Positions 23,726-25,543 of a DNA stretch of 38,253 nt are shown here, piece by piece. This stretch comes from an uncultured archaeon. Its GTDB lineage: Archaea; Asgardarchaeota; Heimdallarchaeia; Heimdallarchaeales; Heimdallarchaeaceae. The DNA lies in NCBI GenBank assembly GCA_964534625.1, contig CAZHRF010000031.1:1-38253 (forward strand), written 5' to 3'. Each line of letters starts with the position of its first letter. Within the stretch, counting starts at the first letter, position 1. The notes under the pieces are model-generated. The model was not told the origin of the DNA. It did not search any database and saw only the letters and a program-made list of their open reading frames with translations. Position numbers and translations under genes: made by a program.

Positions 23726-25543
23726 TTAGTAAGAGATAAGTAAATCTTTACCTTGGTAATCTCCTTCTCCATTGAGCGTATATTTTATCTCAATTTCTTG
23801 TCCTTCTTCAATTTCTTCAATTATCCATTTTTTTACCTTACCTTCGTCGGTATCCTTTAGATCCTCACTTTTGATATTTTCATCTTCTTCAACTAATTTG
23901 AACCCATTTGGTATAAGATCATGGATTTCAATATTGTTAAGTACAATATTTCCTCTATTCTTGAAATAAATCAATATCTCATACATATCTTTTTCTCGAG
24001 CAGGAAACACTTCTTTGTAGAATGTCACTTTCCTTCTCGCATGTGTGATAGACACTGATTCCAATAAATCTTCTATTGGTATTTCCAAAAGTGGAGCTGG
24101 TTCATCTAATTCTGCATGAGCAGTTGGTTTTGCTTCAAATACTGCGTCTTTAGGTGGTTTTGTAACAACTGTGGTATACTTCAAAATGATTTTTTCACTA
24201 GGTTTAATCTCTTTTTCTATCTCACATTGTAGTTCTCTGATTTCATCAATATCATCACTTTCAATAGATATATCATATTCATCAGCTTCTATTTGTATTT
24301 CTTCTCCTTCTTCATTCACAATCCATACACTGATGTCTTCATCTTCAGGGTCAGCAAAATAATTAGGTAACTGATCACTAATAGTTAAGGTTGTAAAAGT
24401 AACGCTACCAGCATTTTCCACAGTGGCAACAATTTCTACAGGTGTATCACGGTAAGAAGCTAATTCCATTTGTGAATATTCCTTATTACCCAATCCATAC
24501 GCTACTGCGAGTTGTTTTTCTGGTATAGTTAATGATCCTGCCGCATTAGCAATTATGTTAGGCAATACAGTATATCTAACAAGTTTTTTAAATGATGGAA
24601 TAGTCTCGCTTTCTTTTTCCCAAACATTCGATACCCAAGTACCATTGGCATCAATGAATTCCATTGAATCTTCATCAAAAACTTCTGTTATATATTCTCC
24701 ATCGTCATCATAGACTTTTATTTCTTGTAATTTTACAGGAAATTCAGAGCGATTTTCAACTCGCAATGTACTATCCCATACATCAGGTGCGTCATTTTGT
24801 TCATCTGATTCAATGTACGTTCGTCCTTTAACTGAACCTGTAGCGTCAATAACAACAAGTTTGGTCGCTTCTTTCCCTTCTCCTGAATATTTGACATAAA
24901 TATCTCCGGTATTTTTAGGCTCTATATCATCTACTGTAATAGATCCTCTAAAAACACACGAGTATTCTAGATTTGATTCTATCTCGTTTATTTCCCAGAT
25001 AAGTTTTTCATCTTCAAAATCAGCATCTCCATCACTAGATACAATTTCAAATTCACTTAAACCACTAGGTAAGGTTTTTTCTATGGTTACAGTATCTAAA
25101 GCTCTCTTAAAAGTGAACGATAGACTAAATTCTACATCTTGCTCATGACCATGTGCCAATACGGTCGATTCTTCATTTCCATCAGGTGCAGTATTTATCT
25201 TTTCATTTACAGAAAAGGGTAATTCGTCCTCAGAGGCTTCTTCAATAATATACTCTTGATGCCATTCGTTTCCGGGGAATAATTCTGCTATATGTAGTTG
25301 CTCTTCTAAATCTAAACCTTCAACATTTTCTAAATCTACATTTACATCAAATATGATGTCATCTGAACCAGAGTTTAAAATTTCTAATAAACCTTCTTTT
25401 TTAAGTTCAATGGCTTTACCCTCTCTATCCACTTTACCTGTAATTGTTTCTTCAACTTTAATGTTCATAGCTTTTTCATATTCGCTCTCTTCTTTATAGC
25501 GGTCATTTTTTTCTTCTTCGTCTTTTTTTCCAAATCCAAACAT
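23726..25543 (-). CDS. Acidic cytoplasmic beta-sandwich protein: mu-homology-domain-like N-terminal half + DUF11/Ig-like domains
   Basis: IKVEETITGKVDREG...EGLLEI and LPFSV...LDTVTIEKTLPSG...DGDADFEDEKLIWEINEI...IYVKY follow the recalled delta-COP/mu-adaptin C-terminal pattern. Later VENAG...ISDQLP and FKNRG...IHDLIPNGF are DUF11-like. No signal peptide or TM; N-terminal MFGFGKK. Confidence 0.6.
   Translation of the reverse strand: MFGFGKKDEEEKNDRYKEESEYEKAMNIKVEETITGKVDREGKAIELKKEGLLEILNSGSDDIIFDVNVDLENVEGLDLEEQLHIAELFPGNEWHQEYIIEEASEDELPFSVNEKINTAPDGNEESTVLAHGHEQDVEFSLSFTFKRALDTVTIEKTLPSGLSEFEIVSSDGDADFEDEKLIWEINEIESNLEYSCVFRGSITVDDIEPKNTGDIYVKYSGEGKEATKLVVIDATGSVKGRTYIESDEQNDAPDVWDSTLRVENRSEFPVKLQEIKVYDDDGEYITEVFDEDSMEFIDANGTWVSNVWEKESETIPSFKKLVRYTVLPNIIANAAGSLTIPEKQLAVAYGLGNKEYSQMELASYRDTPVEIVATVENAGSVTFTTLTISDQLPNYFADPEDEDISVWIVNEEGEEIQIEADEYDISIESDDIDEIRELQCEIEKEIKPSEKIILKYTTVVTKPPKDAVFEAKPTAHAELDEPAPLLEIPIEDLLESVSITHARRKVTFYKEVFPAREKDMYEILIYFKNRGNIVLNNIEIHDLIPNGFKLVEEDENIKSEDLKDTDEGKVKKWIIEEIEEGQEIEIKYTLNGEGDYQGKDLLISY

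Follow-up and report, generated by a model that had tools for sequence, protein, structure and literature searches.

Mu-homology domains (MHDs) let eukaryotic coats (AP complexes, COPI, and muniscins) read sorting signals, and to our knowledge every characterised eukaryotic MHD binds short peptide motifs or partner proteins. The presence of MHDs in Asgard archaea bears on the origin of vesicle trafficking. Eme et al. 2023 (Nature 618:992, PMC10307638) reported PF00928 (Adap_comp_sub) domains, unfused to a longin domain, in most Asgard phyla, and their Supplementary Table 3 lists 44 Adap_comp_sub candidates as proposed eukaryotic signature proteins. The detection was at the Pfam level, with a 'sparse distribution' and without structure or architecture, and two later structure-based Asgard surveys mention the family only by citing that study. 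The first candidate on its list (Jordarchaeia) carries the family motifs N-x-S-x-x-x-R-I-W-N/D, K-x-I-P-x-G-F, W-x-x-x-E-L-x-P-G, and W-E/D-C-x-x-x-F-x-N-x-S-x-F. The family is thus already known, though uncharacterised, and the 605-aa protein described here is a new member and no new kind of protein. What we add is an expansion of paralogues, an N-terminal motif conserved within a clade, and the homology between subdomain B of the MHD and DUF11.

The gene was analysed in silico within a window of 38,253 nucleotides (the whole stretch of DNA examined) from a Heimdallarchaeaceae genome of 3.37 Mb in 120 contigs, which is 89.8% complete (Table 1). The open frame begins one codon upstream of the ATG, so this ATG is the first possible start and the N-terminus, MFGFGKK, is well defined. 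Since no 19-residue window exceeds a Kyte–Doolittle mean of 1.02, neither a transmembrane segment nor a signal peptide is predicted, and the protein, which has only 2 cysteines, is predicted to be soluble and cytoplasmic. It contains 146 Asp and Glu as compared to 59 Lys and Arg, with a net charge of -87. At -0.144 per residue, this charge places the protein in the lowest 0.1% of the 1,971 long ORFs of the genome, and the pI of 4.23 compares with a proteome median of 6.69; the acidity is therefore specific to this protein and extreme for its proteome. In all these respects the original prediction, of a very acidic protein that starts with MFGFGKK and has no signal peptide or transmembrane segment, was correct. 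The locus is present in four DNA runs of one microbial-mat metagenome study, which may be the source sample; no RNA run is listed for the locus.

Table 1. Positions in the window of the gene and of the domains that it encodes, from N- to C-terminus
Feature	Positions	Strand	Basis
Whole gene, 605-aa acidic soluble protein with MHD and three Ig-like domains	23726..25543	-	ORF and translation, no hydrophobic segment, pI 4.23
Residues 1-24, MFGFGKK motif, then acidic linker predicted to be disordered	25472..25543	-	pLDDT about 51-53
Residues 25-105, N-terminal part of MHD subdomain A	25229..25471	-	model strands 26-100, aligned with first half of mu/delta-COP MHDs
Residues 106-224, MHD subdomain B, DUF11-type sandwich	24872..25228	-	PF00928 27.7 bits, DUF11 15 bits (piece alone)
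Residues 225-250, strands after subdomain B	24794..24871	-	model strands 230-237 and 240-248
Residues 251-342, first Ig-like sandwich after MHD	24518..24793	-	model me44a3c4e1d12, pLDDT above 90
Residues 346-502, large pilin/CnaB/cohesin-like sandwich (divergent DUF11/DUF7507)	24038..24508	-	
Residues 503-605, C-terminal DUF11 repeat	23729..24037	-	DUF11 21.2 bits (piece alone)

Scanned alone, the N-terminal part of subdomain A gave no Pfam signal; within it, E32 is kept in 62 and N57 in all of 70 family members. Subdomain B is the part of the protein that HMMER aligns to AP-3 mu. The strands that follow it, which include the nearly invariant E248, are assigned on the predicted model to the C-terminal part of subdomain A. 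The first sandwich after the MHD bears the conserved family motif P-x-x-W-D ... N-x-S-x-F and matched no Pfam family when scanned by itself. On the full protein, DUF11 (PF01345) scores 39.8 bits against a cut-off of 24.6, with residues 525–590 as the best stretch, and TIGR01451 scores 28.3 against 24; the last repeat on its own did not match PF00928. The model of the C-terminal part (pLDDT 94.3) folds into three sandwiches (about 251–342, 346–502, and 503–605), in agreement with the approximately three Ig/DUF11-like sandwiches that had been expected there.

A likeness of these Ig-like domains to the gamma-adaptin ear is not significant once the domains are tested singly. A deep family profile matches the gamma-ear structure 1gyv over the last domain with an E-value of 0.002, whereas a profile of the third Ig-like domain only gives 0.27. 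The adaptin appendage/gamma-ear family PF02883 has no match on the 605-aa protein, whole or cut; in a paralogue it reaches 18.4 bits, over a different domain, and a control bacterium matches it too.

PF00928 matches residues 98–212 of the full protein at 32.9 bits against a cut-off of 31.6. The score is marginal: it falls to 30.1–30.6 bits on fragments, to the value in Table 1 on the subdomain B piece, and to 26.3 bits in a six-frame search. Among 76 family members scanned singly, 42 match PF00928 (E below 0.01; best E 6e-11) and 61 match DUF11. Of the structural domains scanned as separate pieces, only subdomain B matches PF00928, while the protein's own C-terminal DUF11 repeat matches DUF11 and not PF00928. 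None of 14 control reference genomes contains a PF00928 match, including that of Methanosarcina acetivorans, which is rich in DUF11 proteins. A profile of the 76 family sequences ranks the AP-3 mu MHD first in the PDB (E 3e-4), followed more weakly by AP-1 mu, delta-COP, and AP-4 mu; a smaller profile of the MHD only (21 sequences) places AP-3 mu alone at the top, with an E-value of 0.055. The PF00928 signal is thus real but modest and restricted to subdomain B, and subdomain A is recognised through the predicted structure alone.

The AlphaFold2 model of the MHD part has a pLDDT of 91.7 and a pTM of 0.80. Its top 50 Foldseek matches are MHDs throughout (E down to 3e-8), not merely generic DUF11 or CARDB proteins, and the top 10 of an exhaustive structure aligner are all MHDs. 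These matches superpose both subdomains over about 200 residues and extend to model residues 238–273; multi-domain pilins and tandem Ig proteins align over one domain only. The predicted model shows a two-subdomain beta fold, with B inserted into A, that is superposable on solved MHDs. Residues ~25–250 very probably form a true MHD with likely homology to the eukaryotic ones, homology being favoured because of the whole-domain structural matches and the Pfam controls. A delta-COP/mu-adaptin-like MHD at residues ~25–235 was the central claim of the original prediction, and it is upheld by PF00928, by the PDB ranking, and by the structure searches. The same holds for the suggestion that the architecture is unlike that of eukaryotic mu subunits in having no N-terminal longin domain, as only 24 disordered residues precede the MHD and PF01217 is unmatched.

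By profile comparison, subdomain B is a DUF11-type repeat homologous to the protein's own DUF11 repeats. An hhalign comparison with the last domain gave a probability of 97.6% and an E-value of 3e-12 with the family's own domains, and 96% and 4e-9 with independent alignments from genomic loci; subdomain B matched the middle domain at 89.9%, and the middle matched the last at 96.7%. In other family members, the residues that match PF00928 also exceed the Pfam cut-off for DUF11; in P0021, for example, they score 26 bits for PF00928 and 53.6 for DUF11. An h-N-x-S/G strand motif occurs in both subdomain A and the first sandwich, but the profile relationship between the two is weak (61.6%). The nearest ESM Atlas clusters are DUF11 proteins from Promethearchaeota and Thorarchaeota, while eukaryotic Adap_comp_sub clusters reach only 0.79. 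Our literature search found no paper that connects the MHD with DUF11.

These results fit a scenario in which the MHD arose when one DUF11-type sandwich became nested within a second, and subdomain B as a DUF11 repeat gives such an origin a concrete, testable route. Equally, the same likeness feeds a view of convergence, in which the protein would be only a chain of DUF11-type Ig sandwiches, two of them nested, that resembles eukaryotic MHDs without common ancestry with mu or delta-COP. This view can draw on the homology of subdomain B with the protein's own repeats, on members such as P0021, on the lack of a sequence signal from subdomain A alone, and on the ESM Atlas neighbours. We nevertheless consider it improbable: all of the top structural matches are MHDs aligned over both subdomains, as compared to a single domain for pilins and tandem Ig proteins, PF00928 outscores DUF11 on subdomain B while true DUF11 repeats miss PF00928, and all 14 control genomes, the DUF11-rich Methanosarcina acetivorans among them, are silent for PF00928. 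The likeness is also compatible with homology if the eukaryotic subdomain B itself descends from a DUF11 repeat. Homology with eukaryotic MHDs is the reading that we prefer. In a bolder scenario, doubtful as a whole, the Asgard family would preserve the construction of the MHD, in which a DUF11 sandwich was inserted into a second sandwich within a cytoplasmic repeat protein; the nested pair would later have been cut loose and fused to a longin domain, giving rise to mu and delta-COP, and the living Asgard paralogues would already be motif-reading adaptors tethered through an N-terminal hydrophobic-polybasic peptide.

An exhaustive HMMER search with residues 1–290 as query returned 132 representative relatives, mostly of 590–750 aa, with a region in common that corresponds to query residues of about 25–283; none of the 132 resembles a eukaryotic mu subunit. 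With the MHD alone as query, matches were found in 146 of the 201 sampled genomes of the phylum and in 49 of 58 genera, usually one per genome. Compared with the Pfam-level list of Eme et al., our analysis thus provides a modelled fold, a wide occurrence across Asgard genomes, and a lineage-specific paralogue with its own N-terminal motif. Other members join the MHD and Ig core to polyproline tracts of the PPAPPGLPPMP type (P0040, P0041), a C-terminal NACHT NTPase (P0030), a coiled coil (P0053), or, in one member, a TPR, and a sister family of ~725-aa proteins has an N-terminal HEAT_2 repeat (32.7 bits; L008:3307-3657). Such fusions fit a modular interaction scaffold.

The family occupies five places in the source genome, namely C31 (the 605-aa gene), C14, C35, C19, and C9. 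Identity to the C31 gene is 42% for C14 and 38% for both C35 and C19, which are identical to each other over the last 550 residues and are probably one locus assembled twice. In the maximum-likelihood tree, the C31 gene, its G002 orthologue, and the C14 and C35 copies form a clade with 100/100 support, so the C31 gene belongs to a lineage-specific expansion, a recent one that comprises three or four paralogues in this genome. The matched envelope of the C9 copy (a 611-aa open frame, C9:2168-2755) was too short for this copy to be kept in the tree. With 23% identity in the MHD, the C9 copy is divergent and looks like the one found singly in related genera. Possibly it represents the ancestral 'core' copy, while the C31 gene belongs to the expanded clade.

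Two further observations concern related frames in the source genome. In the C35 paralogue (L026:8001-11469; also C19:1-1980), MHD homology starts upstream of the first canonical start codon; further upstream, beyond a run of N that lies within an acidic tandem repeat (EEEQEQTAIV units), the same strand carries a 536-aa ORF. An assembly gap has probably split what is a single gene of ~1,150 aa. No Pfam or PDB match was found for the 536-aa ORF or for the N-terminal 456 residues. At C43:14392-14682, an open frame of 112 aa shares 40% identity with the last DUF11 domain (residues 492–591) and could represent the C-terminal repeat as an independent copy or as a fragment; a similar frame of 135 aa is present in G002.

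The N-terminal motif recurs among close relatives. The G002 orthologue starts with MFGRKKKDEDE and the C14 paralogue, from a TTG start, with MFGRRRKDEKE, while more distant family members start with MVFGRKKKKK or MVFRRKKEKK. Among the 3,068 ORFs of the genome, M-F-G-(K/R)n followed by an acidic run at a candidate start is found only in the two paralogues, C31 and C14. Judged from these sequences, the MFG-polybasic-acidic motif is conserved within the subfamily clade, and because its carriers are paralogues, this is conservation and not independent recurrence.

The gene is flanked by genes for a luciferase-like monooxygenase, a 264-aa membrane protein, DUF1015, a decarboxylase, glutaredoxin, GNAT, and SelR. 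When the neighbourhoods of the C31 gene and its paralogues were compared, no neighbour gene was common to them, and no conserved partner gene emerged. The gene directly upstream, for example (25873-26667 on the minus strand, 264 aa), has no Pfam family and is not kept beside the paralogues. In other subfamilies, an HhH protein, an epimerase, and an M32 carboxypeptidase are conserved as neighbours, which looks like plain synteny among close relatives. A metallo-beta-lactamase gene (30181-31053) was considered as a partner and rejected, as it lies at a distance of 4.6 kb and does not recur beside the paralogues.

Searches of the source genome found a full-length actin (441.7 bits to PF00022) and a Vps28 (ESCRT-I) domain (C36:6880-7458, 49.5 bits) within a 494-aa open frame, where it is probably fused to other domains. 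Liu et al. report fusions of this type from Asgard archaea. Actin and Vps28, together with the origin of the nearest ESM Atlas clusters, identify the genome as Asgard. Profilin (PF00235) had no match in the genome in a search in which the controls were also silent, so that this is not evidence of absence.

The hydrophobic-polybasic N-terminus, together with the MHD fold, could suggest a true functional equivalent of the AP/COPI medium subunit, which would sort membrane cargo into vesicles within a multi-subunit adaptor whose longin and solenoid proteins are separately encoded. Eme et al. 2023 (PMC10307638) found that Asgard archaea have the five AP domain types, each of them unfused, and the HEAT_2 repeat of the sister family points the same way. 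However, no partners were detected in the genome: PF01217 (sigma/longin) and PF09066 (beta-appendage) had no match in low-sensitivity searches of this 89.8%-complete genome in which the controls were silent too, and PF01602 (adaptin trunk) gave one sub-threshold match of 20.7 bits with an internal stop. The absence of a conserved neighbour gene, the three extra sandwiches without counterpart in mu subunits, and an extremely acidic body, as compared to the basic lipid-binding patches of mu2, also count against it. Cargo receptors of the AP mu1–mu3 type bind YxxPhi signals in a tyrosine pocket formed by an Asp on the first strand and Trp/Arg on the last. The tyrosine-binding Asp of mu2 presumably corresponds to K29 by a first-strand motif alignment. 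This motif-aligned column is variable (K11 E10 D8 N7 of 70 family members), so the best-known binding mode of MHDs, the Tyr pocket, is not indicated; the Glu that follows is kept in 62 of the 70. We therefore regard such an equivalence as very unlikely, and in the eukaryotic sense the protein is not a mu or delta-COP subunit, since a longin domain is missing and neither sigma nor large-subunit partners were detected.

Taken together, the results favour an interaction scaffold, modular and cytoplasmic, over a canonical coat subunit. We think it reasonably likely that the protein is a strongly acidic, cytoplasmic, modular Asgard member of the Adap_comp_sub family, with an MHD and three sandwiches, that serves most likely as a protein–protein interaction scaffold. 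An adaptor function through binding of motifs or partners is a more tentative suggestion, which we infer from what characterised MHDs do. The hydrophobic-polybasic peptide and acidic disordered linker would be followed by the MHD and three Ig-like/DUF11 sandwiches, of which the MHD, and perhaps the sandwiches too, would bind short peptide motifs or partner proteins. The MFGFGKK peptide would possibly supply a second contact, either membrane-directed or autoinhibitory; direct binding of the protein body to anionic membranes is unlikely because of its net charge, and any role in trafficking is conjectural. The mainly DUF11 and pilin/cohesin-like sandwiches of the C-terminal two thirds could also suggest a secreted or surface-exposed protein of adhesin-like kind, as is usual for DUF11, CnaB, and pilin-like repeat proteins, with export along a non-classical route, but this is hardly credible given the lack of a signal peptide or transmembrane segment (a strongly hydrophobic 19-residue window occurs in only 6 of the 132 family representatives), the 2 cysteines, the charged, disordered N-terminus, and the family's fusions to the cytoplasmic modules HEAT, TPR, and NACHT. 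As a clear-cut and confidently modelled example, with a firm N-terminus and no uncertain domains, the protein lends itself to expression, structure determination, and partner screening.

The comparison with known systems shows both the likeness and the distance. The MHDs of AP-1 to AP-4 mu and delta-COP (PDB 4mdr, 9fiw, 4ikn, 1w63, 4o8q, 5fjw) are C-terminal, whereas here the MHD lies near the N-terminus and is followed by three sandwiches; those subunits also differ from the 605-aa protein in having an N-terminal longin, heterotetramer partners, of which none was detected in the source genome, basic lipid-binding patches in place of a highly acidic body, and a Tyr-pocket Asp whose equivalent here, at the motif level, is not conserved. 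Muniscin MHDs are likewise C-terminal, after an F-BAR or membrane-binding region. In comparison to the muniscins SGIP1, FCHo, and yeast Syp1 (PDB 5awr, 3g9h), only 24 residues precede the MHD here, and Ig-like domains follow it. Typical DUF11 proteins are secreted surface proteins of plain tandem repeats. The C-terminal domains resemble them in passing the PF01345 and TIGR01451 cut-offs, and subdomain B is homologous to these domains, while the 605-aa protein differs in that it is predicted to be cytoplasmic and in that two sandwiches nest to make up an MHD.
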